Below, one piece after another: positions 1,161-49,586 of a stretch of 64,000 nucleotides of DNA; within the stretch, counting starts at the first letter, position 1, and each line of letters begins with the position of its first letter. The stretch comes from Candidatus Dojkabacteria bacterium. Its GTDB lineage: Bacteria; Patescibacteriota; Dojkabacteria; SC72. The stretch lies in the NCBI GenBank assembly GCA_012513575.1, contig JAAZBX010000007.1:27931-91930 (forward strand), given 5' to 3'. The position numbers were made by a program, and so were the translations under genes. The notes below the pieces were generated by a model that had not been told where the DNA came from, ran no database searches, and saw only the letters and a program-made list of their open reading frames with translations.

Positions 1161-1191
1161 ATACCTAATTATATATTATTATTCTCTCTTC

Positions 1192-1740: not shown

Positions 1741-1813
1741 GTTTGTTGGAGGGAACAATTAAGAAATAAGCATAAGGCTTAATTAGATTGTTCCCTCCAT
1801 TGGGTTCTACCGG

Positions 1814-2170: not shown

Positions 2171-2179
2171 TTTTCTCCT

Positions 2180-2368
2180 TTATATCTCAACAAAGAATGG
2201 AATGGCTATCATTACAGCCCCAACTAAAATAAGTATTGTCCCGAAAAAAGAATTCGTGACTTCCTGACCATTGGAAATCAATTTCTTTCGGTTTAAAGTT
2301 TTCGACCAAGTCAGTATCAGCGAACCAAGCAAAAAAATACAAAATCCAACTGGAATTATTTTTTCCAT
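2180..2368 (-). CDS. Small hypothetical membrane protein with two TM helices
   Basis: 62 aa with two hydrophobic segments, in tandem with 1814..2170 on the same strand. Confidence 0.4.
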   Translation of the reverse strand: MEKIIPVGFCIFLLGSLILTWSKTLNRKKLISNGQEVTNSFFGTILILVGAVMIAIPFFVEI

Positions 2369-2557
2369 CGTTTCTCCTTTGATTATTTTCTATTTTTTAG
2401 TAAAACCCAATATACCCTCAACACTTGTTAAGAAAATATTGGGCTTCACTAATAAAAAATAGGGTAGAACCTTTTTAAAGAGCAGTTGATACCATAAAAG
2501 GTACCTACTTACATTATACTATAGGTTGCATCTTTTCTCAATAGAGGGGGTAGAAAA

Positions 2558-29583: not shown

Positions 29584-30270
29584 ATGAGCAAATTATTTAA
29601 AATTCTATTAACATTATTCCTTATACTATTGGTATTGACACCAATTTCATATTTTATCGCTTATCCATACATAAATGAGATTGAAATACAATTTGGGAAG
29701 CTAAACTTATATGAAATTTCTAAAAAGACTTACATCTCTTTGCTTACATCGGTATCTCCTTCCCCAGAGAAATACAAAACTGTTGAATTTGAGTCAGACT
29801 CAATAGAAGAATCAATTCAATCCAAAAATATTGTTCTAGATAGCAAACTTTTAGAGGAATTAAATACGACATTAACGATTGATTCCGCACTAATTCATGG
29901 GAGAGTTTTCCAGGGGATTACCTCAAAAACAATGGATTTAGGTTTTTGGCATTTTCCTCTTTCGAAATATCCTGGACAAAAAGGCAATTCAGTTATAATT
30001 GGACATCGTTTTTTTTATCTCCCCCCAGCAAAAAACACCTTTTTTAATTTAGATAGAGTACAAATTGGGGACACAATTATTTTAAATCATAATGAGGGGG
30101 AGTGGAAATATATAGTTACAGAAACTAGAATTGTTAATGACAATGATTTATCTGTTCTCCAAAACACAGAAGATTACCGACTAACCTTAATTACATGTAC
30201 ACCTCTTTGGACTTCAGAAAAAAGGTTAGTTGTCATTTCAAAGCTAGACAAACTATATCAAAAAGTATAG
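29584..30270 (+). CDS. Sortase (transpeptidase)
   Basis: N-terminal signal anchor, His in VIIGHRFFY, catalytic Cys in LTLITC and a downstream Arg (KRLVV). Confidence 0.75.
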   Translation: MSKLFKILLTLFLILLVLTPISYFIAYPYINEIEIQFGKLNLYEISKKTYISLLTSVSPSPEKYKTVEFESDSIEESIQSKNIVLDSKLLEELNTTLTIDSALIHGRVFQGITSKTMDLGFWHFPLSKYPGQKGNSVIIGHRFFYLPPAKNTFFNLDRVQIGDTIILNHNEGEWKYIVTETRIVNDNDLSVLQNTEDYRLTLITCTPLWTSEKRLVVISKLDKLYQKV

Positions 30271-31357: not shown

Positions 31358-31939
31358 ATGATATTAATTCCTACAGTAATTGAGAAAGAAAGGGGCGGAG
31401 AGAGAGCATACGATATCTATTCAAGACTTCTTAAAGATAGGATTGTTTTTGTTAGTGGCGAAATTGAAACAAATATGGCAAACACCGTAGTTGCTCAACT
31501 TCTATTTCTGGAGAAAGAGGATCCCGATTCTGACATACAGATGTTTATCAATTCTCCTGGAGGACACATTACCGCAGGAATGGCGATCATCGATACTATG
31601 AATTACATTAAACCTGATGTGTCAACTACTGCTGTAGGTCTTGCAGCATCTATGGGAACAATGTTGTTAATTAATGGAGCAAAAGGTAAAAGATACGCTC
31701 TCCCAAACAGTAAAATACATATTCACCAACCGCTTGGTGGAGTAGAGGGTCAAGCTAGTGATATTGCAATTGAAGCAAAAGAAATTTTGAAAATCCGAGA
31801 AAGTCTTTACAAAATGATTTCAGAGAAAACTGGGAAATCCGTATCTCAGATAACAAAAGATGCTGATAGAGATAAATATTTTACTGCTACCGAAGCCAAA
31901 GCTTACGGTTTGATAGATAAAATAATTAAAAAAAGATAA
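31358..31939 (+). CDS. clpP: ATP-dependent Clp protease proteolytic subunit
   Basis: The Ser-His-Asp triad context (GLAASMG, IHQPLGG) is typical of ClpP. Confidence 0.92.
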
Positions 31940-32472
31940 TGCCAGAAAGATACTATTCTGAATCACCAGATTCATTTGAAGATGAAAGACAAGAAAGTGA
32001 CTTAGAATTCATAAGAAAAGACCTTGAGGACATATTTAGTCATGGGTTCAGCGGAGATTCTCAAACAGAAGATTTAGAAAATTTATCTTCTTTGGATATT
32101 AAGGAATTTATATACCAACACTTAATTGAAAGTGGAATAATTGATGTACAATTTTCCAATACTGTTGATATAGAAAATTTTGATGAGATAGCCCAATTAT
32201 GCGATTTTTTGTCCACCACACTCACAAAATATCCACAAAAAGGAGAAGTTCAAGTACATTTCCTAGAATCGGGTGACTTCGCTGCAACTGTTTCAGTTAT
32301 TCAGACAAGCCTTAAGGGAGTAAGTGTTAAGGTTGAATCTTTAGAAGAGAGCCCCAAATTTTTAGTTAATAAATGGAAAGAAATTGTAGATAAGAATTCT
32401 TCTAAAGATAGAAAGAAAAACAAAACAAAGAAATTTGGGGAGCTAAAAAAGAAATTTGGAAAAAATATTTAA
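31939..32472 (+). CDS. Hypothetical acidic protein, translationally coupled to clpP
   Basis: Its ATG overlaps the clpP stop (TAATG). 177 aa, acidic N-terminus and Lys-rich C-terminus. No ClpX motifs. Confidence 0.5.
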   Translation: MPERYYSESPDSFEDERQESDLEFIRKDLEDIFSHGFSGDSQTEDLENLSSLDIKEFIYQHLIESGIIDVQFSNTVDIENFDEIAQLCDFLSTTLTKYPQKGEVQVHFLESGDFAATVSVIQTSLKGVSVKVESLEESPKFLVNKWKEIVDKNSSKDRKKNKTKKFGELKKKFGKNI

Positions 32473-32489: not shown

Positions 32490-32933
32490 ATGAATAATAA
32501 TTACGAAAAAGAAAAACCTGCCAGCTGGGGAGAAGTAATAGATAGCAGAATTGAGGAAACGCTTAATGCAGAAGCACAGTACTCTCCTTCGTCTTTGCAG
32601 TTTGAAGATATTAGTCTTGCAGATATAGATAAGCACATGCTAGAAAGATTTTATGCAGAATTTCCTTCAGTTGTTCCTTCTGGAATATATTCAGACGCTG
32701 GGTTAATTTCTTTAGCAAACAATCAAGGATTCCATGCAGAAATGCCACAAAATCTCAAAACTCAGCCTCTTTATTTCATCTTAAGGGGAGATAAGGTTGC
32801 TGCATTTTTACCATTAGAGAATATTGAAGAGAGTAGGATTGATTGCTACTTCTTTCATAAACTTAATATCCAAAACGACCCAATTCTAAGGGAAAAATAT
32901 TTGGAATTGCTTTATAGGTTGAATAAAGATTAA
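32490..32933 (+). CDS. Hypothetical protein
   Basis: 147-aa ORF continuing the clpP-strand gene string. No recognisable motifs. Confidence 0.45.
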   Translation: MNNNYEKEKPASWGEVIDSRIEETLNAEAQYSPSSLQFEDISLADIDKHMLERFYAEFPSVVPSGIYSDAGLISLANNQGFHAEMPQNLKTQPLYFILRGDKVAAFLPLENIEESRIDCYFFHKLNIQNDPILREKYLELLYRLNKD

Positions 32934-32959
32934 AAAAAAGATAGAATTGTTTCTGTTAT

Positions 32960-33033
32960 GGGCGATTAGCTCAGCTGGTTAGAGCGTCACATTGACATTG
33001 TGGAGGTCACAGGTTCGAGCCCCGTATCGCCCA
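32960..33033 (+). tRNA. tRNA-Val (anticodon GAC)
   Basis: Cloverleaf: acceptor GGGCGAT/ATCGCCC, D arm GCTC-AGCTGGTTA-GAGC, anticodon stem TCACA/TGTGG with loop TTGACAT, and a T arm ACAGG-TTCGAGC-CCCGT with one A-C mismatch. Discriminator A, no encoded CCA, followed by a T6 run. Confidence 0.85.
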
Positions 33034-33037
33034 TTTT

Positions 33038-34125: not shown

Positions 34126-34521
34126 ATGGAACCACAAAAAATTCAAGATAATTCAGGCTCACAGCTAATTCAATTTGAAAAAACAGATTCTTATTCCAAG
34201 ATACTTGTTTACTTCATTCAAGATTTCTTAAATTGGTGGTATGTGAAGATGCCCATAAGGCACCTTAAAATTCTGGGGCGTATATCTGTATTGGTTGATG
34301 ACAATCTTTCAATGTCTTTACTCTTCAAAAATTTTTTTGTTCCATGGCATAGAGACAATTCACTAATAGGTTACTTCTTTGGTTTTCTAGTCAAAATCTT
34401 TTATTTACCAATCGCTTTATTAATTTATCTATTATCAATTCTTACGTATCTAGCAGTAATAATAATTTGGTTATTACTTCCTATCGCAACATTAGTATTT
34501 TCTATTACATCTTTTTTTTAA
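34126..34521 (+). CDS. Hypothetical membrane protein
   Basis: 131 aa with a hydrophobic C-terminal half. Its stop codon is immediately followed, in the same frame, by the ATG of the Clp-ATPase gene. Confidence 0.45.
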   Translation: MEPQKIQDNSGSQLIQFEKTDSYSKILVYFIQDFLNWWYVKMPIRHLKILGRISVLVDDNLSMSLLFKNFFVPWHRDNSLIGYFFGFLVKIFYLPIALLIYLLSILTYLAVIIIWLLLPIATLVFSITSFF

Positions 34522-37236
34522 ATGGAATTAGAATTTGGTAGCAAACAAAAAACACTTATTGGAATACATCATAAAGAAAAAAATTCTTTTTCTGTTTCAA
34601 AAAAGGGATATCCTGTTCCAACAGATGAGAATCAGTCAATATTTCTTTTAACACGTGATCATTTCTTTTCTATCACAACACCACAAATCTCATATCTGCT
34701 CTACAGTAATCCCAAATATGAGAAATTTGAAAAAATTAAAAGTATCATCTCCAATATTTTAATCGTTCCAGGAGTTTTAATAACTACAGCATACATTCTA
34801 AAATTTACTTCTCTTCTTGATAATTTCCCTTTAATTTTGAGCCTACTCAACAACCCATTCACCAACTTTTTATTTGGTATTTCAATTTTCTCAATCTTGC
34901 TCCTTTGGCATGAATTCTATAGTGACAGAGATCAGCAGATGCAACTCCCCTTAATAAAAAAAATCCCTCAACGTGATATCGATGAAATTAATACTGTTGG
35001 TTTTAAGTTTGGAAGATATTCAAATATTGATATTGCCAAATATATTTCTTCTGAAACAATTCAACTCCTTTCAGATTTTACTCTGAATGGAGAATTCGAC
35101 ATATATCACTGCTTTAAGATATTGACAGACGAGACATTTGAAGTACAACAGATAGTCCGACGAGGAGGAATCTCAATCGACAATGAAAAGTTAGAGAATT
35201 CTGATGTTAATTCTGACACTCTTCCTAAAATAAATCTCTCTTCAATTAGAGCTCTACTTGTATATGCTGTAGAGGAGGCATTGCTAACAGAAAGTAAAAT
35301 GGTCAATCCTGAGCATATATTTTTGGCAATTTCAAAAATGTATCCTCAAATTATAAAGATGTTCCAGAAAGAGAATATAAACTTAGACATATTTAGAGAA
35401 GTTGTAAAATTTCAGAATTTTCTTAATAGAAGAAAAGCAAAATATCTAGACCCAGATCAACCATATTATAGAAAGGGTGGAATTGGGAAACAAATTATCT
35501 ACGGCTATACCTTCATATTAAGTCACTTTAGTAAAGAAATTAACAAAAAAATTGCAGAGACAAATGACATCTTTGGTATAGGTCATGACGAAGAGGTTGA
35601 AAATCTTGTATCAGTTCTTGGGAAAGTTACAAACAAGAATGCGTTGTTAATTGGAGAACCAGGAGTTGGGAAATCAAGTATAATTCTTGGTCTTGCACAA
35701 AGAATAAATAAAGGAGATGTCCCAATTCAGTTGAAAGATAAAAGAATAATTGAATTAGATATTAATGCCCTTATCGCTCATTCTCAAAATGCCTCAAGTA
35801 TGGAGGAACTAATGATTAAGGCCATGACAGAATTATCAAAAGCGGGAAATACCATTCTCTACATAGATGAAATTCAACAGATAGTTCCAACAAAAGCACA
35901 AGAGAGTGGACATACAATTGCGGGAATGATGCTCCCATATATTCTTAACAGTAAATTCCCCATAATTGGGAGTATTAACTATTCAGATTACAAAAAATAT
36001 TTTTACAGTAATGAATCTCTTAGACAAAGTTTTACGAATATTGAGACAAAAGAGATATCAGCAGCGGATGCACTTACAATATTGGAAAGTAAAATTCCTT
36101 CGCTGGAAAGCAATTTTAATTGCTTTATTACATTCCCCGCTCTGGTGTCAGCGGTTGAAATATCTCAAAGGTATATTAAAGAGAGAAAGCTCCCAAGTAG
36201 TGCAGTTCAAACAATCGAAGCAGCCTGCTCTTGGGCACAAGCAAATGGGATTCAGAAGATTACTTCGGAACATGTTTCTAAAGCAATTTCTCTGCAAAAA
36301 AATATAAATATTACTGAAATAAATCAGGAAGAAAGTAACAAGTTAATCAAATTAGAGGAAAATATCAAGAGCAGAGTAATAGGGCAGGATGAGGCTGTTA
36401 CAGTAATATCAGAAGCGCTAAGGCGAGCGAGGGCAGATATTCGAAACCCCAATAAACCAATAGGCTCATTTCTCTTTATTGGACCAACTGGTGTAGGAAA
36501 AACATATTTAGCCAAAGTTGTTGGAGAAGAATACTTTGGAGTTGAAGATACCATTATTAGACTTGATATGTCAGAATATCAGGAAATATCTAGTATAAAT
36601 AAATTCCTCGGTTCTTCAGAGGGAGATAGCATTTTAAGTCAAACCGAAATTTCATTAATAGACAGGATTAAAAGAAGTCCACACACAGTTGTTCTTTTTG
36701 ATGAGATAGAAAAAGCCCATCCTGACATTTTAAATCTCTTCCTTCAAATCTTTGATGAGGGAAGACTTACAAGTAATCAAGGTGATACCGTTGATTTCAC
36801 TCATGCAATAATTGTCTGTACAAGCAATATCGGAAGTAAAATTCTTTTAGATTCACTCTCAGAACCAAATGTCATGTGGGAGGAAGCAAAAGAAAGAGTA
36901 TTATTAGAGCTAAGACAAGTTTTAAAACCTGAGCTACTAAATAGATTTGACGACATAATTGTATTCCAACCTCATGACATGAGTAATCTTTCAAAAATTG
37001 CTGTTCTGGAACTAAATCAACTTGCAAAAAGGCTTGCAGAGAAAGAGATTACACTAAAATGGACTCAACAAATTCCAATGCTCATTGCAAACAAAGCCAA
37101 TGATCCAGGCAACGGTGCTAGACCATTAAAAAGATACATACAAGACAATGTGGAAGGACAGATAGCCAAAGCGATTATAGAACAAACATTAAAGCCTGGA
37201 GAAGAGGTCGAGATAAAGGAGAGTTGGATTGTATAG
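34522..37236 (+). CDS. ClpA/ClpC-family AAA+ chaperone with an N-terminal membrane region
   Basis: Two hydrophobic helices (IISNILIVPGVLITTAYIL, FLFGISIFSILLLW) are followed by Clp_N repeats. AAA-1 has GEPGVGKSSI, AAA-2 has GPTGVGKTYLAK and VVLFDEIEKAH, and the sensor-2 region ends in GARPLKRYIQ. There is no long M-domain. Confidence 0.8.
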   Translation: MELEFGSKQKTLIGIHHKEKNSFSVSKKGYPVPTDENQSIFLLTRDHFFSITTPQISYLLYSNPKYEKFEKIKSIISNILIVPGVLITTAYILKFTSLLDNFPLILSLLNNPFTNFLFGISIFSILLLWHEFYSDRDQQMQLPLIKKIPQRDIDEINTVGFKFGRYSNIDIAKYISSETIQLLSDFTLNGEFDIYHCFKILTDETFEVQQIVRRGGISIDNEKLENSDVNSDTLPKINLSSIRALLVYAVEEALLTESKMVNPEHIFLAISKMYPQIIKMFQKENINLDIFREVVKFQNFLNRRKAKYLDPDQPYYRKGGIGKQIIYGYTFILSHFSKEINKKIAETNDIFGIGHDEEVENLVSVLGKVTNKNALLIGEPGVGKSSIILGLAQRINKGDVPIQLKDKRIIELDINALIAHSQNASSMEELMIKAMTELSKAGNTILYIDEIQQIVPTKAQESGHTIAGMMLPYILNSKFPIIGSINYSDYKKYFYSNESLRQSFTNIETKEISAADALTILESKIPSLESNFNCFITFPALVSAVEISQRYIKERKLPSSAVQTIEAACSWAQANGIQKITSEHVSKAISLQKNINITEINQEESNKLIKLEENIKSRVIGQDEAVTVISEALRRARADIRNPNKPIGSFLFIGPTGVGKTYLAKVVGEEYFGVEDTIIRLDMSEYQEISSINKFLGSSEGDSILSQTEISLIDRIKRSPHTVVLFDEIEKAHPDILNLFLQIFDEGRLTSNQGDTVDFTHAIIVCTSNIGSKILLDSLSEPNVMWEEAKERVLLELRQVLKPELLNRFDDIIVFQPHDMSNLSKIAVLELNQLAKRLAEKEITLKWTQQIPMLIANKANDPGNGARPLKRYIQDNVEGQIAKAIIEQTLKPGEEVEIKESWIV

Positions 37237-37301
37237 ATAGATTGTTGAAAAAATTCTTTTAATCAAATATAATCTGAACGTTAATATATAGTAAAAAAAA
37301 C

Positions 37302-39292: not shown

Positions 39293-40018
39293 TTACTTTA
39301 CTGGTGCATTAAGTTTCTTCGACTTTTCCTTTAATATCTCCATTACATCTGCAAAGTCAGTATAAGGTTTAAAAGGTTTATAAATATTCACAACAAGATT
39401 TTCCTCTTCTGAAACATAATAACCAGTCAGGCTTAATTCAACCTCCCAAAGTTCAGCACTCTTTGTAAGAGAAATATTCTGTGGAGAAACAATATATGGA
39501 GAAGAGTAGTAAAAGTTATCCAAAAAGTTCAGTATATTTTCTAGAGATCCCCTGTAAGCCAAAGGGCCATTAACACCCTTATACTGATTAGAATCCTGTT
39601 GCTTATTTTTATCTACAATCCCAATATTTACATCGCTTGCAGAGATTTTATCTGATGTTAAATTTTTTAATCTCGCCAGTTCATCTATATAATAGAGAAA
39701 GCTAGCAACTTTCAATGTCCTAGGTATAACACTTTTAACCTCGATTAAATCATCATTCAATTGATCCTCAGAAATACTCTCAATTGATTGTTTTAGTTTA
39801 ATTAATTGTTCCTGTTTTGACTTTATTTCTTTAAGTTCAGTTCGATAATTAAAGGCTTCCTTTAACATTGGAATAAAAACAAATATTGAGATGAAAAGTA
39901 AAATCATAGACACAATTATGGGAATTATTAAATCCTTTATCTTTAATCTGGTATTCTTAATCTTTTCACTTATTCCCTCTTGTTTTCTTACAGTTTTTTG
40001 CATGTTAGGAAGTGCCAT
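39293..40018 (-). CDS. pilO: Type IV pilus assembly protein PilO-like
   Basis: N-terminal TM helix, a coiled coil and a periplasmic domain. Last gene of the pilMNO string. Confidence 0.6.
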   Translation of the reverse strand: MALPNMQKTVRKQEGISEKIKNTRLKIKDLIIPIIVSMILLFISIFVFIPMLKEAFNYRTELKEIKSKQEQLIKLKQSIESISEDQLNDDLIEVKSVIPRTLKVASFLYYIDELARLKNLTSDKISASDVNIGIVDKNKQQDSNQYKGVNGPLAYRGSLENILNFLDNFYYSSPYIVSPQNISLTKSAELWEVELSLTGYYVSEEENLVVNIYKPFKPYTDFADVMEILKEKSKKLNAPVK

Positions 40019-40020
40019 AA

Positions 40021-40689
40021 TTATTCTTTCTTCTCATCTAAATTAGTACTAAAATTCCCTTCTTTCATAGTAATCTTGAATTCAAATTTTACAACAGAAT
40101 CCAGTTTATTAAATTGTTCAAGACTTACCCTGCTTACTAGCTCATCTTCACTTAAAAGGTACCAGAATTTAGCCAAATCATCTAAAGATGGGCATTTGCC
40201 TTCAAAAGAAACCGATTTTACACTCTGGAAATCAAATTGATCTAATTCAATATCACCTAGATTTGAGGCAATTTGGGTAAAATATTCAAAAATCTTCCTC
40301 GCCGAATATTGATTTGATGAAATATCTTGATAAAGATATATTCTTCTTAATATCTCCTCATTAGAAAGAATAACTGAACTCAACTGTTTTACTTCCGCCT
40401 CTTGTTTACTTAATTCGCTTTGTGCTTTCTGAACCTGTATCTTGCTTATCGTCGAAAAAAGAACAATGATTATTGTGATTGTAAGAAAAATGATAATACT
40501 TAATATTGAACCGATGTTCAATTTAACCTTCTTTTTTTCCTGAACTATTTCGGATTTTGACAATATTGGAACCAAGTTAATGCTATCATCATTATCAGCC
40601 AAAAATACATCGTCAAGGCTTGGAGCCTCTTCCTTGACTACTGATTTGACCTCTTTTTCCTTTTTGTTTTCTTCAATTACTTTATTCAT
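40021..40689 (-). CDS. pilN: Type IV pilus assembly protein PilN-like
   Basis: Cytoplasmic N-terminus, one TM helix and a coiled coil (QVQKAQSELSKQEAEVKQL). Overlaps the pilM stop. Confidence 0.6.
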   Translation of the reverse strand: MNKVIEENKKEKEVKSVVKEEAPSLDDVFLADNDDSINLVPILSKSEIVQEKKKVKLNIGSILSIIIFLTITIIIVLFSTISKIQVQKAQSELSKQEAEVKQLSSVILSNEEILRRIYLYQDISSNQYSARKIFEYFTQIASNLGDIELDQFDFQSVKSVSFEGKCPSLDDLAKFWYLLSEDELVSRVSLEQFNKLDSVVKFEFKITMKEGNFSTNLDEKKE

Positions 40690-41713
40690 CTTTTAATGCT
40701 AAACCTATCGCAACTGAATATGATGGAGCACCCTTCATCGCGATGTCCTCGAAACGTTTATCAATTATAATATTGTTCCAAGGCATTGCAATCATTACAT
40801 TGGCATTTAAGCTTTTTGCGACATATTCTTTCAAGCCTGGAAGGAGAGCACCATCTCCACTTAAGACATAATCTGTTGGAGCAATTGAAAGGGTTCTACT
40901 CTTGAAAAACTCAACACCTCTTCGAACTTCAACCAATATGGATTCAATTATTGGCGTTAATACACTCAAAATCTTTCCTTCCAATACATTGTCTACTAAA
41001 CCGTAATTTCTTTTGAACTCTTCTGCTCGCTGGGTATCGAGATTAAATTTATTTACAACTGCCTGTGTCAGGGAATCAGAGCCTATCGCAATACTTTGAG
41101 AGAATACTAGGTATCCTTCTGAAATAATACTCATATCTGTACTGTTGGCACCGAAATCTAACATTACCAAAGTATTTTTCCCTGTTGATTTGTACATGGC
41201 TCTCCCCATTGCAACTGATTCAGTTTCAATTGAGAGCAAATCTAAACCTGCCTGTGCAGCAATATTAACATAGATATTTACAACTTTTTTTGCAGCAGCT
41301 ACGACTAGTACTCTTGGAGCATTTTTTTCAGTATTAAAACCTATCGGAACATAGTCTAGTTGAACCTCATTCAAAGGTAAAGGAATATACTGTTTAGCCT
41401 CGTAGTAAACGGCCTCTTTTAATTCTTCTTTCTTTACTCCAGGTAATTCAAAGAATCTTGTAAACACAGAAAACTCAGGTAAAGCCATAACTACTTGCCT
41501 ATTTTTAATCGCAGAGGCATCATAGAGCCTTTTTAAGACATCAGCAAGTTTCTTCTGGTCTGCAATGTCTTCACTGTTAATAACTCCCTTTGGAGTGACT
41601 TGTGAACCTAGATTAACTAATGTTGGTTTGTTGGTTGATATCCCTGAAAGCTCCACAGCTTTTACAGAGTGCGTTCCAAAGTCTATCCCAACATGATCGG
41701 GCAGTTTTGCCAT
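40682..41713 (-). CDS. pilM: Type IV pilus assembly ATPase-fold protein PilM
   Basis: Actin/FtsA-like fold. HVGIDFGTHSVKAVEL phosphate-1 motif. Confidence 0.8.
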   Translation of the reverse strand: MAKLPDHVGIDFGTHSVKAVELSGISTNKPTLVNLGSQVTPKGVINSEDIADQKKLADVLKRLYDASAIKNRQVVMALPEFSVFTRFFELPGVKKEELKEAVYYEAKQYIPLPLNEVQLDYVPIGFNTEKNAPRVLVVAAAKKVVNIYVNIAAQAGLDLLSIETESVAMGRAMYKSTGKNTLVMLDFGANSTDMSIISEGYLVFSQSIAIGSDSLTQAVVNKFNLDTQRAEEFKRNYGLVDNVLEGKILSVLTPIIESILVEVRRGVEFFKSRTLSIAPTDYVLSGDGALLPGLKEYVAKSLNANVMIAMPWNNIIIDKRFEDIAMKGAPSYSVAIGLALKDE

Positions 41714-41758
41714 GTTAAGTAATTCAAATAATATTAATTCAAACTTTCAAAAGAGCTT

Positions 41759-42157
41759 TTACAATTGTCCGGGTTCGCCGACATATTTGTTTAATTCTTT
41801 GACTAAGCCATCGTAATCTAAATCAGTTTTTACTAAATATGATGAAGCTCCTAGGCTAAACGATTCTCTAATAACAGACTCACTTGTCATATTAGTTAGG
41901 ATAATTACAGACATATCTCCATATTTCCCAGTATTTGTTTTAATAGCCCTGAGAACCTCCAAACCATCAACACCAGGCATCATCAAATCAAGAAGAAGAA
42001 TGTCAACGTTACCTAAGTTCTTTGACAATGTATCTAGGGCTTGATATCCATCAGAGGCTGTTAAAGCAAAGAAACCTGCCGTTTCAATTAATTCTTTGTA
42101 AGAATCCAACAAGTCTTTCTCATCCTCTACGACTAGAATTGTTTTCTTTTTATCCAT
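41759..42157 (-). CDS. Single-domain CheY/PilH-like response regulator
   Basis: Canonical receiver: VVEDE, the phospho-acceptor in LLLDLMMPGVDG, Thr in IILTN and Lys in LVKTD. Confidence 0.8.
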   Translation of the reverse strand: MDKKKTILVVEDEKDLLDSYKELIETAGFFALTASDGYQALDTLSKNLGNVDILLLDLMMPGVDGLEVLRAIKTNTGKYGDMSVIILTNMTSESVIRESFSLGASSYLVKTDLDYDGLVKELNKYVGEPGQL

Positions 42158-42198
42158 TTCACCTGTTTGTTGAATTTAGACAGTTTGGTTTATACATA

Positions 42199-42900
42199 TT
42201 ACCATATTATCGTTTCAGTTTTAATAATTGCTTGCCTCTGGAATTGTCTGTTTAGTAACTCACCGTTCCCAAAGTACCAATTTACAGCAGAAGAGAGCAT
42301 ATCTAATTGAATTACTTTGTTTTTCTCAACTGTAGGTTTAAGTTGTATAGTAAAATTCTCGATGTTTACAAATCTAGAGTTTAATACAACAAAATTTTCA
42401 TTTTCGGATATCAAACAATCACGATGATCATCGGGAGTATCCGCTAAATCAGGTTTTGAAGCTCTTAGAATATATCCATTTACATTCCCACTATTATCAA
42501 CATCAGTAGAAACACCTTTGTAGAAGGCTAAACAAATCCACCCAGTTGAGCCGTTTGGTTTGAAATGAATCTCATTACCTGTTTGGTTAGGAACTGTTAC
42601 TTCATCAAAAGAAGAAATCTCTGTTATATTTCCATTCTCAAAATTAAACGTTCTGGCATTACTTTGATAAAGACGAACATTACTCGGATCTGTTGTCCTG
42701 AGTGTTCTTCTTAACATCTCTAAAACATACTCTGATTCCGTTCTTACTCTTGCCTTGTTAGTAGAAGTTGTGGATACCCTTATCAATGTTGAGAGGACTA
42801 AAGCGGAAGTAAGCATTAAGAAACCAAGGATTACAGTCGTTATTAACATCTCCACCAAGCTAAACCCTTCGTATGTTTTTCTCTTTTTCATTCTCATCAT
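42199..42900 (-). CDS. Minor pilin / pseudopilin with a class III signal
   Basis: N-terminus KRKTYEGFSLVEMLITTVILGF has a prepilin cleavage and methylation motif (G/FSLVEM). Confidence 0.7.
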   Translation of the reverse strand: MMRMKKRKTYEGFSLVEMLITTVILGFLMLTSALVLSTLIRVSTTSTNKARVRTESEYVLEMLRRTLRTTDPSNVRLYQSNARTFNFENGNITEISSFDEVTVPNQTGNEIHFKPNGSTGWICLAFYKGVSTDVDNSGNVNGYILRASKPDLADTPDDHRDCLISENENFVVLNSRFVNIENFTIQLKPTVEKNKVIQLDMLSSAVNWYFGNGELLNRQFQRQAIIKTETIIW

Positions 42901-43496
42901 CTTAAAGGTATTACAGTTGAATATATATAGTGTTTGACATTTCTTCTTGCAGTATATGTACCTTCGCTTGCAAGATGACCAACCACAATCCCAACATTTA
43001 TTTGTTTATCCGTAGACGCAGTGTAGGGATAAAAACATGCATATCTAAAGAAACCACTTCCAACATTATTTGTCATTATTTCTGCATCTTCAAAATCTTC
43101 TCTATGAATATTAATCGTTTCTATTGTAAGAGAAGATATCGTCAGAATCTTAAAGTCATCATCTTTTTTAAATTCAAACACTCCTGAATTTGTAGTATCA
43201 GGAATAAAACATTTGATATTTGTTGGAAAACTAGGAGCTATTTTGTTAAAAAATGATATAGCATCAGAAGAAGTAGGATACTCGTAAAATTCCTGGACTA
43301 TATTCTCAGCCATATTTGCTCCTTCAACTGCATACTGTGTCATTTTATCTATTCTTTCATTTTCTACAGCATCACTCATTGTAGAAGCTGCAATTCTCAT
43401 AAGGACAACAGATGCGACACCAACTACCATTATGGCAATAAGGGATTCAATAAAGCCCATTCCTTCATATGAATTGTATTTAATTTTGTTCTTCAT
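42897..43496 (-). CDS. Minor pilin / pseudopilin
   Basis: N-terminus YEGMGFIESLIAIMVVGV is a prepilin-type motif with Glu at +5. Confidence 0.65.
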   Translation of the reverse strand: MKNKIKYNSYEGMGFIESLIAIMVVGVASVVLMRIAASTMSDAVENERIDKMTQYAVEGANMAENIVQEFYEYPTSSDAISFFNKIAPSFPTNIKCFIPDTTNSGVFEFKKDDDFKILTISSLTIETINIHREDFEDAEIMTNNVGSGFFRYACFYPYTASTDKQINVGIVVGHLASEGTYTARRNVKHYIYSTVIPLR

Positions 43497-44292
43497 TTCC
43501 TTTTACAATAATTCTTCCTGACAAGTGAGATATGACGATAGTTTTTCCACCTTTATTTCCTGGTCGTGAAATCTTAATCTCAAGGGGTAATGTTTCAGAC
43601 AAAGGCTTATGTGTATCATAATCGAAATTCAGCAACGCACCAGCAGAATCATAGAAGAGAGCTCTTCCTGTTACTGATTCAAAAAGAAGAAAAGCAGGAC
43701 GAGCATTGGGATTGGGTTCATCTGGATAACTGTCAGAAAAAACAGGCAAAATATTAACAGATAACTGCTGGTTTCCAGCTCCCATCGTACCAATACCCAT
43801 ATCTCCGAACAATGCATACCCCTTTAGGACATTGACTCCATCGCTTCCACAAGAACCCGTGTTGAAGGGTACTGTTGTAACTGGAATATTCCCATTATAT
43901 GAGCTGATGTCATTCTGTGGATCGAAATTGGGCACTGCTGATCTAGTTCTTATATCTCCATACTCAGAAAACCCTGAACACCATTTAAACGGATAATAGA
44001 CTCCGAAAGTTCCATTAACAGTATCCTCAATATTCCTTAAATCTATACCCAACCCATAAATCCATCCTTCATTTGAACTTTTTTCTAGCAACATAGCATC
44101 TCTCTGTACTTTCCTAATATTTTGTTCAAAACCATTTATAAACTCATTTAATCTAATAGTTGATTGAAAATTTTGATATGTTGAAAAAGAAAGTCCTGAT
44201 AAAAGAACAATTATGGACATAACAATCAACAACTCTATAAGTGTAAAACCAGAATATCTTGAAATCTTTTTTAACATATTAGGCAGCTTCAA
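43480..44292 (-). CDS. Minor pilin / pseudopilin
   Basis: N-terminus SRYSGFTLIELLIVMSIIVLLSG is a textbook GFTLIE prepilin motif. Confidence 0.75.
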   Translation of the reverse strand: MKLPNMLKKISRYSGFTLIELLIVMSIIVLLSGLSFSTYQNFQSTIRLNEFINGFEQNIRKVQRDAMLLEKSSNEGWIYGLGIDLRNIEDTVNGTFGVYYPFKWCSGFSEYGDIRTRSAVPNFDPQNDISSYNGNIPVTTVPFNTGSCGSDGVNVLKGYALFGDMGIGTMGAGNQQLSVNILPVFSDSYPDEPNPNARPAFLLFESVTGRALFYDSAGALLNFDYDTHKPLSETLPLEIKISRPGNKGGKTIVISHLSGRIIVKGNEEQN

Positions 44293-44345
44293 GTTACTAA
44301 TTCAATTTAGCATAAAACAATATACTATTCAATGTTTCTTACACT

Positions 44346-45101
44346 TTAAAGAGGTGGAATAATGAGCTGTAAGATTTTACTAAAAATCACATCTCCATAT
44401 ACAGCTCCAATTACAAAAGAAAGAGAGATGAAAGGAATCATTGGAATTTTTATCTTTTTGATATCTTCCTTTGTTATCAATCCATTAAAAATCGCATAGA
44501 GTAGAGCAGATACAATCGAGAGCCAAAAGGTCGTTAAAAATTGCTTTGGAGATATTACCAATCCAATTGAGAGTAATACTAGAATATCACCGAAGCCGAA
44601 AGATTTCTTTATTATCTTTGTTAATAGAAATATCCCTAATAATATTCCAATTGTAATAATTACAGACAGAGGAATTTGAATAAAGAGTATAAAAACAAGA
44701 ATTGAGAAAATTAATAAAGTATGAACTAAATTTCTCGGAATTTCTTTGTAGAGAAAATCATAGTATGAGAGAAGAAATAGGAATAGTAGAATTATCCAGA
44801 TATAAAAATGGGAACTATTTAAATAGAGAAGAAGGAAAGAACCTCCTAGGAAAGCTTCAGAGATAGGGTAGTAGGGATTTACCTTTGAGCGACAATTTTT
44901 ACATCTTCCTTTAATTAATAAATAACCAAAACATGGAATTAATTCATACCAAGTTAGTTTCTTTTTACATTTTTCACAATAAGAACTTTCTGTTAAGAGA
45001 GTTGATAGTTTAATATTTTTTTCAATTCTGTATAGTGTAGCGTTAATATAACTGGCCAAGGAAGCACCTAAGAAGAATATACATAAATATATAATTAGCA
45101 T
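44346..45101 (-). CDS. pilD: Prepilin peptidase / N-methyltransferase PilD (A24 family)
   Basis: Polytopic membrane protein with a CEKCKK...CKNCRS zinc-binding tetracysteine loop and conserved Asp residues. Confidence 0.8.
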   Translation of the reverse strand: MLIIYLCIFFLGASLASYINATLYRIEKNIKLSTLLTESSYCEKCKKKLTWYELIPCFGYLLIKGRCKNCRSKVNPYYPISEAFLGGSFLLLYLNSSHFYIWIILLFLFLLSYYDFLYKEIPRNLVHTLLIFSILVFILFIQIPLSVIITIGILLGIFLLTKIIKKSFGFGDILVLLSIGLVISPKQFLTTFWLSIVSALLYAIFNGLITKEDIKKIKIPMIPFISLSFVIGAVYGDVIFSKILQLIIPPL

Positions 45102-45133
45102 GTATCCATTATATACAGCTTTTTAAAAAAGAA

Positions 45134-45155
45134 GAACCCCTCGGAAGAGGGGTTC
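45134..45155 (-). terminator. Intrinsic terminator downstream of pilin gene 45171..45968
   Basis: Perfect hairpin GAACCCCTC-GGAA-GAGGGGTTC, followed on the minus strand by a T-rich run. Confidence 0.7.
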
Positions 45156-45170
45156 AAAGATATTTCTTAA

Positions 45171-45968
45171 TTACATACAGGCAGGACTATTCACATCAAG
45201 GCATTCTGTGTCTTTGTCAGAAACACAACTTGGAGAACATGGGTCATCAGGGCTTCCAGGTATTACTGGGGATGGAATATCTTTAACAATTGGTTCCAAA
45301 GTCTTATCTGTTCCATCATCCGTATCACAATATGAGGGTCTACCATCAATACAGTTTGTATTCTTTGTAGGATCACATGGAGCACAAGGGTCATAGGTTG
45401 GTTCCTCTTTTATTGGTGTCCACGTCCTTCCGTCCCAATTTGACCTTGTTTTAGCTTTCTTTATCAATTCATAACTTGCCGGGTCTTCCACAGGTAGATA
45501 CTTCTCCTTTGTTATTGTTCCAAAACCCTCTCCCATGGTTGGGTCTCCAAATCCATTTCCTACACAAATTATCCCTTTTTGTAATTCATCATCAATCCCT
45601 CCTAAAGTAACACAAATTAATACGGCTTGTTTAGATGTATTAGTAGAGTAGTAGTAGGTAGCTTCAGAACCACCATTAAAAAGACCTAAATCTAAATAGT
45701 TTTTTAGACTTCCTCCCTCTGCAGTCATCTGTTCAATACTAATTGGTGTCCCATCAGGTTGACTCCCATCTGGGAATACCCCATTATCAGTATAGAAGGA
45801 TTGAGCAGCCTGATAGAGTTGTGTGGCACCATTTTTATGTGCTATCTCATTTGATTTGTCTATTGAGAATCTTCCTGCAGCTACTCCTACGACAATTAGA
45901 ATTACCAAGATCCCCATTACAATTAGCATTTCTACTAACGTGAATGCTTTATATGATTTTTTCTTCAT
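45171..45968 (-). CDS. Type IV major pilin paralogue with a Cys-rich C-terminal extension
   Basis: N-terminus MKKKSYKAFTLVEMLIVMGILVIL is a class III signal with Ala at -1. The pilin fold has the CVTLGG...CVGNGF Cys pair. The last ~70 aa are Cys/Pro/Asp-rich with 10 Cys. Confidence 0.8.
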   Translation of the reverse strand: MKKKSYKAFTLVEMLIVMGILVILIVVGVAAGRFSIDKSNEIAHKNGATQLYQAAQSFYTDNGVFPDGSQPDGTPISIEQMTAEGGSLKNYLDLGLFNGGSEATYYYSTNTSKQAVLICVTLGGIDDELQKGIICVGNGFGDPTMGEGFGTITKEKYLPVEDPASYELIKKAKTRSNWDGRTWTPIKEEPTYDPCAPCDPTKNTNCIDGRPSYCDTDDGTDKTLEPIVKDIPSPVIPGSPDDPCSPSCVSDKDTECLDVNSPACM

Positions 45969-46029
45969 AATTGCTTTTTTAAATTTACTTATTATAAATT
46001 ACACAATATCGTTATACTTGTCAAAAGAA

Positions 46030-46051
46030 AAACCCCTCCGAAGAGGGGTTT
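46030..46051 (-). terminator. Intrinsic terminator downstream of pilin gene 46078..46653
   Basis: Hairpin AAACCCCTC-CGAA-GAGGGGTTT plus a T-rich run on the minus strand. Nearly identical to the 45134..45155 hairpin. Confidence 0.7.
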
Positions 46052-46077
46052 CAGATTACAAAACACTAAACTTTAAC

Positions 46078-46653
46078 TTATTGAACTACATCAACAGTTC
46101 CCCATCCATCTCCATTCCAGAAAGATGTATCAGCCGTCTCAACAATAGCAGTATATTCTGCATTCTCATCTGCTTCGTAAAATTCTTTGGTAATTGTAAA
46201 TGAGCCACTCCCATTTGTCAGAGTGTCAGGAGCAGTAAGGGCAAAACCGTTACCAACACAAGAGACACCTTTATTTGTCTCATCACCCGCTCCACCCAAG
46301 GTTACACAAACAACAACTGCCTGTCTGGTACTATTTACATAATAAGAATAGTCTGCCTCAGACCCACCCTTAAATGAACCCATATCTAAATATTTTCCCA
46401 AAGCACCCTCCACATTGTTAGGATTCGTGGTCATGTTCTCCAAAGTGTCATAACTTGGAAATCTTCCATAATCAGTAAAATGAGATTGTAATGCTTGATA
46501 TAACTGTGTAGCACCATTCTGGTGTGCAATTTGATTTGCTCTATCAATTGCAAACCTTCCTGCAGCTACTCCTACTACCATAAGGATAACTAAGATTCCC
46601 ATAACAATAAGCATCTCAATCAAAGTAAATGCTTTGTATGTTGCTCTCTTCAT
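46078..46653 (-). CDS. Type IV major pilin (PilA-like)
   Basis: N-terminus MKRATYKAFTLIEMLIVMGILVIL. Shares about 35 near-identical N-terminal residues and internal motifs with the 45171..45968 paralogue. Confidence 0.8.
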   Translation of the reverse strand: MKRATYKAFTLIEMLIVMGILVILMVVGVAAGRFAIDRANQIAHQNGATQLYQALQSHFTDYGRFPSYDTLENMTTNPNNVEGALGKYLDMGSFKGGSEADYSYYVNSTRQAVVVCVTLGGAGDETNKGVSCVGNGFALTAPDTLTNGSGSFTITKEFYEADENAEYTAIVETADTSFWNGDGWGTVDVVQ

Positions 46654-46720
46654 ATATTTTATATATTTAGGTTAATTTAACTAATAATAAGTTACACAAT
46701 GCTATTAACATTGTCAATAG

Positions 46721-47932
46721 CTATGTCATAACTTGAGACAAACCAAACATAGGCATATACACACCAAGTGCAATAAAACCAACTGCAACACCCATAATTA
46801 TTAACATTAAAGGCTCTAAAATTGTTGAAAGATTTGAAGTAGCAGTATCAACCTCTTCTTTATAATATTGAGATACCTTTTCTAAAACTGCATCAATCTC
46901 ACCTGTCTCCTCTCCTACAGAAATCATGCTACTAACAAGAAGTGGAAAATACTCACTCCTTGCAATCGGAAGAGCTAAAGGTCCCCCCTTTTCTACCTCT
47001 TCCTTTGATTCCATTACAACATCTTTAAATATGGAATTACTTAAAGATTGTCCTGTTAGCTCAAGAGCTTTGACAATTGACAAACCACTACCAAGCAACA
47101 AAGACAGAATTCTAGTAAATTGGGCAATCTGGGTTTTTGAAATAAGTTTACCAATAATTGGGAGTTTAATTAGAAGCTTGTCTATTGTCTTCTTTCCTTT
47201 CTCTGTGCTTTTGTAATATCTGAAACTAACATAAAATACAGAAATTATGACAATAACGGCCCACCAATAATCAAGTAAGAGATCACTTGCAGTCATAAGC
47301 ATTCTGGTAATAACTGGTAAATCAGCACCAAAATCATTGTAGATATCCGACATTGATGGAACGAGCACAAACATCATCATCAAAATAACACCCAAAATTA
47401 CTACAAGGATAATAACAGGATAAATCATTGCAGATTTAATTTTACGACTAAGAGATTCTTTTTCTTCTAATTCTGTAGCCAACTTACCAAGAATAACTTC
47501 CAAATTTCCACTTTCCTCTCCAGCTTCAATTAGGTTGAGTGTAATATTGTCAAATACATCTTCCTGCTCTCTAAATGAAACCGATAATGATTTCCCTGAT
47601 TGTACTGCAGTAGAGACATTCTGAAGAACTTTTTTAAACATTGGATTGCTTGATTGGTCAACCATTATTTCCAAAGCCCTATTAAGTGGCAACCCAGACG
47701 CAATCATTGTAGCCATCTGCCTCATAAAAACAACCTTTTCTTTCATTGGAACTCCACCAATGTTTATCTCTGAAAACCTACTGGGATCTAATATGCTTGC
47801 TTCTTTAATTGAAACAACAACTAAACCTTGATCATGGAGGATATCAGCAACAGCTCCCGGGTCTCTTGCCTCAATATCTCCCTTTACCTCTCTACCGTTT
47901 TTATCTCTTGCAGAGTATTTAAATTTCCCCAT
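46721..47932 (-). CDS. pilC: Type IV pilus platform protein PilC (GspF family)
   Basis: Two GspF repeats, three TM segments, 403 aa. Confidence 0.85.
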   Translation of the reverse strand: MGKFKYSARDKNGREVKGDIEARDPGAVADILHDQGLVVVSIKEASILDPSRFSEINIGGVPMKEKVVFMRQMATMIASGLPLNRALEIMVDQSSNPMFKKVLQNVSTAVQSGKSLSVSFREQEDVFDNITLNLIEAGEESGNLEVILGKLATELEEKESLSRKIKSAMIYPVIILVVILGVILMMMFVLVPSMSDIYNDFGADLPVITRMLMTASDLLLDYWWAVIVIISVFYVSFRYYKSTEKGKKTIDKLLIKLPIIGKLISKTQIAQFTRILSLLLGSGLSIVKALELTGQSLSNSIFKDVVMESKEEVEKGGPLALPIARSEYFPLLVSSMISVGEETGEIDAVLEKVSQYYKEEVDTATSNLSTILEPLMLIIMGVAVGFIALGVYMPMFGLSQVMT

Positions 47933-47935
47933 ATT

Positions 47936-49564
47936 TTAACCTTTTAATAATCTAACTACTTCATCAGGATGAACAGCATACTCCTGGGCTTTTTGGGCAG
48001 TTATCACACCCTCCCTTACCAAAGAAACCAATGATTTCTCAAGATATACCATTCCGATATCGGCACTTGTCCTAATGACATTATCTATCTGATGAGTTTT
48101 ACCTTCCCTAATAAGATTGGCGACAGCAGGTGTATTAAACAAAATCTCAGAAACTGCTCGTCTTCCTCCCTGGTCAAGAGGGATAAGTCTTTGAGCAACA
48201 ATAACCTGAAGAATATTTGATAGCTGCAACCTTACTTGGGCTTGCTGATTTTCTGGAAACACATCGATTACTCTATCAACTGTTTGAGCAGCATTGTTAG
48301 TATGCAATGTTGCAAATACTAAATGACCTGTCTCTGCCAAAGTAATCGCTGCAGCAATAGTTTCATAATCTCTCATCTCACCAACTAGGATAACATCTGG
48401 GTCTTGCCTCATTGCACTTCTTAGTGCAATTGCCCAAGAATTTGTATCATCATTCATTTCTCTCTGATCAATCAATGCTTTTTTGCCCTCAAAGACATAT
48501 TCAATAGGATCCTCTATTGTAATAATATGATCAAACCTGTTTCTATTAATATCTTCTAACATAGCAGCTAAAGTCGTACTTTTCCCGTGACCAGTTGGAC
48601 CAGTAACTAATACAAGACCCTGTTTTAACTTGGCAATTTGATGATATATTTGTGGCAAAAGCAATTCTTCAATGGTTTTAACTCTTGTTGGAATAAGTCT
48701 AAAAGCAGCTGCCAAATTTTTCATGGTATAGTAAGCATTTACCCTAAATCGTGCAGTTCTTGCACCTTCGAAGGAATATGCAAAGTCAATCTCTCTATTT
48801 ACTTCAAGAAGTTCTTTTTTATCATCAGGGATTACGGAGAGTATTAATTTTTCAGCTTCCTCAGGAGTCATGAGCTTTTCTCCAACATCAATTAATTCTC
48901 CATCAATTCTAATTATCGGAGGATATCCAACTGAAATATGCAAATCAGATGCATTTTTATTTACTACTTCGGTAAAAAGTTTTTCCATTGTAATTTCATT
49001 GCCTTCTAGAGAAATTTTTGAATTTTCGTTTTCAAGTGGCTCACTGTGTGGCATTATTGTACTAAGAGGTTTTGAAAGATTGTTTTCTTTCTCATTTCTT
49101 TCGAGAGCTTTTATTTTGTTAAGCTCAGGCATAATTTGAGAAAGAGACTCATTCCAATTACTTTTTGCAATGGGAGGAACTTGAAGATTTGGTAACTCTG
49201 TGGGCTTTTGTACATAGGTGGCCTCCTGTGTAGCAGAAGGTTGAGTCTGAGATTGCGCTGTCTGAGAAGGAGATGCCACTACAGATTCTTGTGCAGGTGG
49301 AGTATCTATAAGTGCACTAATGTCTTTTTTAAGTTCATTTAGTTTGTTTTCATCTATGTATGTCGAAGTAGAATCTTTTATCTCTGTCTTTGGCACTGAA
49401 GCGGTAGAAACAGGGGATGGTTGGGAGGGAGTAGAAGATGGTGCCACTGGATTGGTTTGAGGTTGTGGAACTTGTGTCGGAGTAACCTGAATAGGGGAGT
49501 TATTAAAATCTGGATACGCGAATTGCATTCCGTTTGGATTTTGATTTTGGGCAGTATTATCCAT
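47936..49564 (-). CDS. pilT: Twitching-motility retraction ATPase PilT with a ~190-aa low-complexity N-terminal extension
   Basis: PilT core with GPTGHGKSTTLAAM, Asp/His boxes and AIALRSAMRQDPDVILVGEMRD. The N-terminus is rich in P/Q/T/S. Confidence 0.85.
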   Translation of the reverse strand: MDNTAQNQNPNGMQFAYPDFNNSPIQVTPTQVPQPQTNPVAPSSTPSQPSPVSTASVPKTEIKDSTSTYIDENKLNELKKDISALIDTPPAQESVVASPSQTAQSQTQPSATQEATYVQKPTELPNLQVPPIAKSNWNESLSQIMPELNKIKALERNEKENNLSKPLSTIMPHSEPLENENSKISLEGNEITMEKLFTEVVNKNASDLHISVGYPPIIRIDGELIDVGEKLMTPEEAEKLILSVIPDDKKELLEVNREIDFAYSFEGARTARFRVNAYYTMKNLAAAFRLIPTRVKTIEELLLPQIYHQIAKLKQGLVLVTGPTGHGKSTTLAAMLEDINRNRFDHIITIEDPIEYVFEGKKALIDQREMNDDTNSWAIALRSAMRQDPDVILVGEMRDYETIAAAITLAETGHLVFATLHTNNAAQTVDRVIDVFPENQQAQVRLQLSNILQVIVAQRLIPLDQGGRRAVSEILFNTPAVANLIREGKTHQIDNVIRTSADIGMVYLEKSLVSLVREGVITAQKAQEYAVHPDEVVRLLKG

Positions 49565-49586
49565 ATATATTATTTATACCAAAAAA

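Follow-up and report, generated by a model that had tools for sequence, protein, structure and literature searches.

A predicted membrane-anchored Hsp100 ATPase and its small membrane-protein partner gene in Candidatus Dojkabacteria

The window analysed here is a 64-kb stretch of contig JAAZBX010000007.1 from Candidatus Dojkabacteria, with a G+C content of 34%. It carries two adjacent genes, both on the plus strand, whose architecture, conservation, pairing and motif states can be observed directly. The first, open reading frame (ORF) A (34126..34521), encodes an orphan membrane protein of 131 amino acids (aa), for which 283 homologues and an AlphaFold2 (AF2) model are available. The second, ORF B (34522..37236), hereafter the ATPase, encodes a 904-aa class-I Hsp100 protein that, according to Pfam, NCBIfam and alignments, has the architecture of ClpA, is predicted to be membrane-anchored and does not possess the ClpP-docking loop. 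On comparative grounds, both ORFs are real genes: full-length orthologues of the ATPase number more than 100, and homologues of ORF A 283. The ORF A stop codon TAA occupies 34519-34521 and the ATG of the ATPase begins at 34522. This TAA-ATG junction (34519..34524) leaves a gap of 0 nt, and the two ORFs are therefore necessarily in one frame. The initial annotation had placed both codons correctly, but its position for the preceding run of eight T residues (34511-34518) is one base off: the run extends over 34512-34519 and includes the T of TAA.

The distance between the two genes was compared in 13 related loci. Counted from the stop of ORF A to the start of the ATPase, it ranges from -4 to +5 nt and covers all three frame relations. 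It amounts to -4 nt in L074 and L078, -1 nt in L049, 0 nt in L079 and L080, +1 nt in L001, L008, L065 and L066, +2 nt in L012 and L028, +3 nt in L068 and +5 nt in L003, so that the majority of the orthologous pairs are out of frame. The locus L080 stems from an independent assembly, its ATPase is 99% identical to that of the window, and it displays an identical T8-TAA-ATG junction. In none of the three junctions that were read, the window's included, is the ATPase start preceded by a Shine-Dalgarno-like sequence, and a promoter and terminator scan, which gave no enrichment over shuffled sequence, found no promoter-like site between ORF A and the ATPase. For these reasons, translation of the ATPase is probably tightly coupled to that of ORF A by termination-reinitiation.

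The family is narrowly distributed. Among the matches listed, more than 100 ATPase orthologues are full-length (901-907 aa, 100% query coverage, 99% to 56% identity), and every organism-level name attached to them is Candidatus Dojkabacteria (WS6) or an unclassified "bacterium". The ORF A homologues, 106-174 aa long and nearly all 131-133 aa, bear names pointing to the same source. A HMMER search of 1.84 billion cluster representatives with ATPase residues 1-340 returns only 30 clusters, the full-length members of which are 792-939 aa long. Scanning one genome per species with a profile built on a four-sequence alignment yields 67 loci, of which 66 belong to Dojkabacteria, WS6 or Patescibacteria-type metagenome-assembled genomes, part of these genomes being bulk-labelled "Saccharibacteria"; the remaining locus lies on a 1.3-kb contig that was binned as Lachnospiraceae. 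Judged from these searches, the pair is specific to Dojkabacteria and close relatives and represents a lineage-restricted class-I Hsp100 subfamily.

In each of the 13 related loci that were inspected and have upstream sequence available, ORF A directly precedes the ATPase. This conserved partnership, together with the short gaps, bears out one of two options offered by the initial annotation, that of a coupled pair. The association extends to remote relatives: an ORF A homologue adjoins upstream of P0246, a degenerate member (hhalign probability 99.8%), and of P0260, whose identity to the N-terminal part of the ATPase is only 23% (hhalign probability 98.4%). Since both keep ORF A upstream, the pairing is, by homology detection, old. 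For the distant member P0258, the upstream region is cut by the contig end; a 133-aa ORF downstream of it was considered as an ORF A homologue and rejected.

Pfam analysis of the ATPase identifies AAA (375-473), AAA_lid_9 (514-606), AAA_2 (645-812) and ClpB_D2-small (821-898) domains. The protein is colinear with ClpA: BLASTP aligns residues 224-898 with ClpA 69-733 at 30% identity, and the NCBIfam ClpA model matches in a single stretch, residues 333-899 corresponding to model positions 168-733. The M-domain of ClpB (392-519) does not have any counterpart and faces a 122-column gap in the alignment, while the short M-domain of ClpC (405-451) is also unmatched. Despite the closest sequence likeness being to ClpB and ClpC, the absence of both M-domains makes the architecture ClpA-like.

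The states of the functional motifs were compared in 119 aligned sequences, the window ATPase and 118 orthologues. The first AAA+ module with its lid, D1 (residues 350-610; 35569..36351), has intact Walker A (GxxGxGKS) and Walker B (IDE) motifs, conserved in the family. In place of the KYR pore loop stand non-aromatic residues that vary between sequences (QNA, SKK and others), and the RR arginine fingers (ERRF/ARRF) are not conserved: Q-S is found in their place within an invariant ESLRQSF, and the preceding R is lost in distant members. In the second module, D2 (residues 611-815; 36352..36966), the Walker A and B motifs, the sensor-1 position (TSN) and the arginine finger (NRFD) are all intact and conserved in the family, as is the sensor-2 motif (GARP) of the C-terminal ClpB_D2-small domain (36982..37215), assigned by Pfam and alignment. 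The GYVG pore loop of D2 is replaced. Its position is variable and harbors a hydrophobic dipeptide followed by Gly in most orthologues (LLG, ILG, MFG, IYG), and the window ATPase exhibits SILS, GYVG being aligned to GDSI; in two distant members the loop is deleted. The mean column identity of D1 and D2 across orthologues is about 0.8.

A group of divergent members (P0254, P0265, P0270, P0246 and P0250) keeps the N-terminal beta domain, the transmembrane (TM) hairpin and the Clp_N-like region described below, but shows degeneration of the Walker and pore motifs in D1, D2 or both. In P0246, ORF A still stands upstream of the degenerate ATPase.

ClpA binds ClpP via the IGL/IGF tripeptide of a helix-loop-helix in D2; this tripeptide is required for binding, and ClpB and Hsp104 do not possess it (PMC5540906). 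Alignments to ClpA, ClpC and the orthologues place the equivalent of this docking loop at residues 776-790 of the ATPase (DSLSEPNVMWEEAKE; 36847..36891), a segment devoid of any [ILV]-G-[FL] tripeptide. The IGL of E. coli ClpA aligns to P-N-V (782-784), and the FAGFGG of S. aureus ClpC faces a 6-residue gap. The stretch is variable (EPNVMW, EKNTMW, KDHSLW and others) and free of Gly in 119/119 sequences. A search for an IGF/IGL loop in AAA-2 had been recommended together with the idea that the ATPase may be the partner of ClpP; P-N-V stands in place of such a loop, and the tripeptide is missing from the window ATPase and from all 118 aligned orthologues, which argues against that idea.

A canonical relative is found close to one of the pairs. 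In L078, a distant family-bearing contig, a soluble Hsp100 of 809 aa is encoded on the minus strand (1..2369), 3 kb from the ORF A/ATPase pair. It has a Clp_N, its KFR, ERRF, short M-domain and GYIG are intact, and it does not contain any [ILV]-G-[FL] tripeptide; these features suggest a protein of the ClpB/ClpL type whose M-domain is short. As this protein keeps KFR, ERRF and GYIG, the odd motifs are specific to the anchored paralogue and do not reflect a general drift of Hsp100 proteins in these organisms. The two proteins presumably have different roles.

The ATPase carries an unusual N-terminal extension of ~165 residues, comprising a small beta domain and two hydrophobic helices (~74-94 and ~113-133). 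AF2 modeling of the N-terminal part, from a 46-sequence alignment, gave a mean predicted local distance difference test score (pLDDT) of 79.7 and a predicted template modeling score (pTM) of 0.72. From the N-terminus, the model presents strands within 12-50, a helix at 53-95, a short helix at 103-109, a helix at 112-136 and a helical domain at 150-304 (pLDDT ~90), followed by a low-confidence linker at 316-337. The beta domain (residues 10-50; 34549..34671) is composed of four strands (12-17, 22-25, 38-43 and 47-50; pLDDT ~77-90) and displays conserved residues G14, H16, F41, T44, R45 and F49. Predicted TM helix 1 (residues ~74-94; 34741..34803) reaches a Kyte-Doolittle value of 2.08 at residues 75-93 and is located inside the AF2 helix 53-95. 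Predicted TM helix 2 (residues ~113-133; 34858..34920), with values of 1.3-1.5 at 104-134 and covered by the AF2 helix 112-136, ends in a conserved L-W-H-(D/E)-x-Y, of which L128 and W129 are invariant.

In a 12-member family alignment, both stretches stay hydrophobic while their sequence varies. Basic clusters flank the pair, K65, K68, K71 and K73 ahead of the first helix and R136, K146, K147 and R151 after the second, and the 17-residue loop between the helices harbors one acidic and no basic residue. Because the AAA+ rings must be cytoplasmic, the simplest topology predicted is an N-in/C-in hairpin of two helices with almost nothing exposed outside. The initial annotation had already drawn attention to an unusual N-terminal region with two TM helices; hydropathy peaks and AF2 helices agree on them, and the extension is conserved in all orthologues.

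The hairpin is followed by a helical domain (residues ~150-304; 34969..35433) that may be assigned, at the level of fold and profile, to a very divergent Clp_N. Pfam matches Clp_N in 4/12 family members (best E-value 1.4e-4). When the family profile is compared with the PDB, nearly all matches are Clp N-domains, including all those with E-values below 0.1, the best being ClpC2 (8ad9; E-value 2.4e-4, profile positions 242-295). Foldseek comparison of the AF2 model with the PDB returns Clp N-domains as the best matches and as most of the top 15 (HSP101, ClpC, ClpC1, ClpC2 and ClpB), with probabilities of 0.8-0.99 and TM-scores of 0.5-0.66, the last value being that of ClpB 1khy (root-mean-square deviation 3.6 Å). 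Finally, the domain aligns to residues 2-145 of ClpA. The Clp_N repeats of the initial annotation are thus recovered in relatives, by profile and by fold, but not in the Pfam scan of the window protein itself. Its estimate of ~140 residues ahead of them was about right, ~165 being nearer, as residue 2 of E. coli ClpA and ClpB aligns near ATPase residues 165-167.

Between the N-domain and D1 lies a family-specific linker with the motif PYYRKGGIGxxWIYGYTFILSHFSKD (residues 313-339; 35458..35538), identified in the orthologue alignment. It is the most conserved element of the N-terminal half: Y315, G319, G320, G328, T330, L333 and F336 are invariant, and W325 and Y327 are conserved in at least 90% of the sequences. 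Alignment with ClpA and ClpB reveals no counterpart of this motif, the pLDDT of which is below 50 in the isolated N-terminal model.

ORF A has no match in Pfam, NCBIfam, PADLOC or PDB sequences, and no meaningful Foldseek match. Its AF2 model (pLDDT 84.7) consists of a disordered N-terminus, helices at 23-61 and 63-68, a loop, and a continuous helix at 80-130. This loop, which joins the cytosolic helices to the hydrophobic one, harbors P-W-H-R-D (residues 73-77; 34342..34356), invariant in a 44-sequence alignment and found as PW[KHQ][RN][DR] in distant members. The hydrophobic segment (residues 83-128; 34372..34509), predicted from hydropathy and AF2 to form one or two spans, is 46 residues long, has its Kyte-Doolittle maximum (2.82) at residues 96-114 and is broken solely by the nearly invariant K90. 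ORF A is thereby predicted to be a small integral membrane protein with one or two passes. To note, E. coli clpS occupies the same upstream place before clpA, and ORF A is unrelated to ClpS; by this positional analogy, an adaptor-like role or that of a complex partner is suggested.

The interpretation that we favour, with moderate confidence, is that of a ClpP-independent, membrane-anchored Hsp100 complex that would comprise ORF A and be powered by D2. ORF A would provide a small integral membrane protein whose translation is tightly coupled to that of the ATPase, and the ATPase would be tethered to the cytoplasmic side of the membrane through its N-in/C-in two-helix hairpin, inserted between the beta domain and the divergent Clp_N. 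Since the docking tripeptide is absent, the ATPase would not feed substrates to ClpP. D2 retains every catalytic motif and, for this reason, would be the motor. D1, which keeps Walker A and B but has neither a KYR pore loop nor RR arginine fingers, would most likely act as a nucleotide-binding assembly or regulatory ring. Together with ORF A, the hexamer would remodel or extract membrane-embedded or membrane-proximal proteins, in a geometry analogous to that of FtsH or Msp1 without the protease. Substrates may be gripped by the non-canonical aliphatic pore loops, and perhaps also by the WIYGYTF linker. This division of labour between D1 and D2, like the cellular function, is what we infer from the protein.

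Several points weigh against this interpretation. Neither ring possesses a canonical aromatic pore-1 loop, and that of D2 is variable and even deleted in distant members; classical processive threading is disfavoured as a result. Membrane insertion of the ATPase is a strong prediction drawn from hydropathy and AF2 helices, and a physical contact between the ATPase and ORF A is something we infer. The Foldseek E-values that accompany the Clp_N assignment are weak (0.18-1.8). AF2 gives ORF A a single 51-residue helix (80-130), which is too long for one span, as it contains 46 hydrophobic residues with only K90 between them. Finally, the neighbouring genes dus, rpmF, nusB, rnc and rpsP do not provide any hint of function.

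Among the alternatives, the one that survives best, and that we regard as possible, is that the ATPase does not thread at all and functions as an ATP-regulated switch or scaffold with a Torsin-like logic, the cycles of D2 altering a membrane complex that contains ORF A. Such a role would be consistent with the loss of the conserved pore-1 Tyr in both rings, with the hypervariability and occasional deletion of the D2 loop, with a D1 devoid of arginine fingers and with an obligate small membrane partner. The degenerate Walker motifs of P0254, P0265 and P0270 also point in this direction, as does a weak Torsin match in Pfam (E-value 8.7e-4), which is below the cut-off (19.8 bits versus 27). Conversely, most Dojkabacteria orthologues have kept a hydrophobic dipeptide and a Gly near the D2 pore loop, Clp_N and the full double-ring architecture are strongly conserved, and D2 carries its own arginine finger, unlike Torsin.

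A bolder version of the favoured complex, which we consider doubtful, holds that ORF A and the anchored Hsp100 constitute an undescribed membrane-embedded AAA+ machine, in which a ring of ~18-24 TM helices would stand over a double AAA+ ring without ClpP docking or aromatic pore loops. This machine might be a protease-independent extractor or insertase of membrane proteins, or a translocation motor resembling PTEX, with the WIYGYTF linker replacing the pore loops.

It is improbable that the two hydrophobic helices are a soluble helical or oligomerisation element and that the ATPase is a cytosolic Hsp100 with an unusual N-terminal domain. The second helix is only moderate on the Kyte-Doolittle scale, and AF2 does not distinguish membrane helices from soluble ones, both of which would leave room for this view. 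Against it stand the two uncharged stretches of ~20 residues, which conserve hydrophobicity and not sequence, the aromatic and basic belts that flank them (LWHEY, K-rich), and the obligate partnership with ORF A, whose own hydrophobic segment is almost uncharged over 46 residues.

The hypothesis of a membrane-tethered unfoldase partner of ClpP, in place of a missing ClpX, fares slightly worse still. The clpP gene (31358..31939) lies 2.6 kb upstream of the ATPase, anchoring at the N-terminus would keep the D2 face accessible to ClpP, and the ClpA-like architecture without M-domain would suit a ClpP partner. The initial annotation had pointed out that no clpX stands beside clpP, and neither clpX nor any other Clp ATPase is indeed found in the 64-kb window: Pfam scans of its 20 largest ORFs detect only MgsA and PilB/T ATPases. 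A search for the clpX pattern GPTGSGKT in 76 loci gives three matches upstream of the ATPase, the one inspected (L046) being a PilB/GspE-type ATPase. However, the window extends over 64 kb only, and clpX may lie elsewhere in the genome. The linkage to clpP is not conserved either, the upstream neighbours being others in L001, L003, L074 and L079. Above all, the [ILV]-G-[FL] motif required for ClpP binding (PMC5540906) is missing from the docking loop in the whole alignment.

The surroundings of clpP deserve a description of their own. An acidic ORF of 177 aa (31939..32472), basic in its C-terminal tail, shares its first base with the end of the clpP stop codon. It occupies the usual place of clpX and has no Pfam or PADLOC match. 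In L007, a 169-aa ORF (492..1001) of visibly similar sequence displays the same clpP-coupled layout. Another ORF of 147 aa (32490..32933), located between the clpP-coupled ORF and tRNA-Val (32959..33034), also lacks any Pfam or PADLOC match.

Least probable is the second option of the initial annotation, a single gene split by one stop codon. The interruption would stem from an error of sequencing or from a nonsense mutation of recent date at T8-TAA, or the gene would be expressed by programmed readthrough. In favour of this view, a single stop codon after a homopolymer is all that lies between the two in-frame ORFs. Against it, junctions occur in all three frames among the orthologues, no fused protein is found among 283 + 20 ORF A homologues or the matches to the ATPase N-terminus, the homologues of ORF A share one end point in the alignment, and the independent assembly reproduces the junction. 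From these comparisons, ORF A and the ATPase form a conserved two-gene operon and not an interrupted gene, the in-frame layout of the window being incidental.

The locus itself is core, and its synteny with rpmF-nusB-rnc-rpsP is kept in relatives. A role in anti-phage defence was considered and rejected, as the PADLOC matches of the ATPase are partial, reflect generic D2 similarity and cover one AAA+ region only (DolB, 116 bits over 582-773; PDC-M37B, 105 bits over 510-777; none for ORF A), in a locus that is core and syntenic. Between the ATPase stop codon and rpmF (37302), a sigma-70-like promoter match is present at 37245..37273 (TTGAAA, a spacer of 17 nt, TATAAT; 11/12). This strong match ahead of rpmF suggests that the ORF A/ATPase pair is a transcription unit separate from the downstream rpmF-nusB-rnc. 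On the minus strand, 2 kb downstream of the pair, a type IV pilus cluster (39293..51419) encodes two T2SSE ATPases, PilM and a protein resembling T2SSF/PilC. In L001, L003, L074 and L076, too, the pair has pilus genes as neighbours, and some linkage may exist.

Further away, a 228-aa ORF upstream of tig (29584..30270) possesses an N-terminal hydrophobic segment and, in a translation read by eye, the sequence TLITCTP, which recalls the TLxTC active site of sortases. A GyrA-like ORF (54762..57491) matches the Pfam DNA_topoisoIV model in two separate stretches, the best of which covers only model positions 1-172 of 432; this pattern may point to an insertion within the catalytic domain.

In textbooks, Hsp100/Clp unfoldases are soluble machines. 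The variant described here is conserved throughout a candidate-phylum lineage whose genomes measure ~0.7 Mb, and it comes with an obligate membrane partner that is itself an orphan. Three features regarded as central to Hsp100 function are gone from it: the ClpP loop or M-domain, the tyrosines of the pore loops and the arginine fingers of D1. If active, it would put to the test how far a double-ring AAA+ motor can dispense with the canonical threading apparatus, and it would add a solution for membrane proteostasis in bacteria of the candidate phyla radiation. Sources give the family the names ClpA or ClpC "Clp protease ATP-binding subunit", labels that the motifs do not support and that are to be corrected. 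Full-text literature searches did not retrieve any description of a membrane-anchored Clp/Hsp100, nor of Clp proteins in Dojkabacteria.

In terms of known systems, the ATPase resembles E. coli ClpA (TIGR02639) by its Clp_N-type N-domain, its two AAA+ modules and the absence of an M-domain. It differs from it by the 165-residue extension with beta domain and predicted TM hairpin, and by the loss of the IGL docking loop, of the KYR and GYVG tyrosines and of the RR fingers of D1. It scores 438 bits against TIGR02639, for a cut-off of 993, and 328.8 against PRK11034, for a cut-off of 1350. The highest PDB and NCBIfam similarities are to ClpB/Hsp104 (TIGR03346), T. thermophilus ClpB being matched with an E-value of 4.5e-117 and a nearly gapless D2, and the ClpP tripeptide is absent in both. 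The score against TIGR03346 reaches 498 bits in two stretches, for a cut-off of 1232.1. The M-domain defines ClpB and couples it to DnaK. The ATPase does not possess this coiled coil (ClpB 392-519), is predicted to be anchored and exhibits non-canonical pore loops.

The ClpC proteins of Firmicutes and Actinobacteria, including ClpC1 and ClpC2, provide the best matches to the N-domain in both sequence and fold (ClpC2 8ad9, ClpC 2y1q), and D1/D2 are similar to those of ClpC with an E-value of 6.5e-114. Unlike ClpC and ClpE, the ATPase does not have the short M-domain nor the VGF/LGF/AGF loop, in place of which it has the 6-residue gap, and it is predicted to be anchored. Assessed by profiles and motifs, the ATPase fails the defining tests of ClpA, ClpB and ClpC, and it is not a member of the FtsH/Msp1 or Torsin families.

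These last two families are nevertheless those to which it may be compared by analogy. Torsin, with its cofactors LAP1 and LULL1, is related to Hsp100 D2, operates at a membrane without aromatic pore loops and needs a membrane-protein partner. The ATPase likewise lacks aromatic pore loops and has a membrane partner, but Torsin is a eukaryotic, single-ring protein of the endoplasmic reticulum lumen without an arginine finger of its own, whereas D2 of the ATPase has one. FtsH, Msp1/ATAD1 and membrane LonB carry N-terminal TM helices from which a hexameric AAA+ ring hangs beneath the membrane, its pore entrance toward the bilayer. They belong to another AAA+ clade and have a single classical AAA module, as compared to the two Hsp100-type rings of the ATPase, and FtsH and LonB carry a fused peptidase, whereas Pfam and NCBIfam scans of the ATPase detect no peptidase family, M41 included. 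The likeness would thus be one of geometry, N-terminal TM helices holding an AAA+ ring under the membrane.

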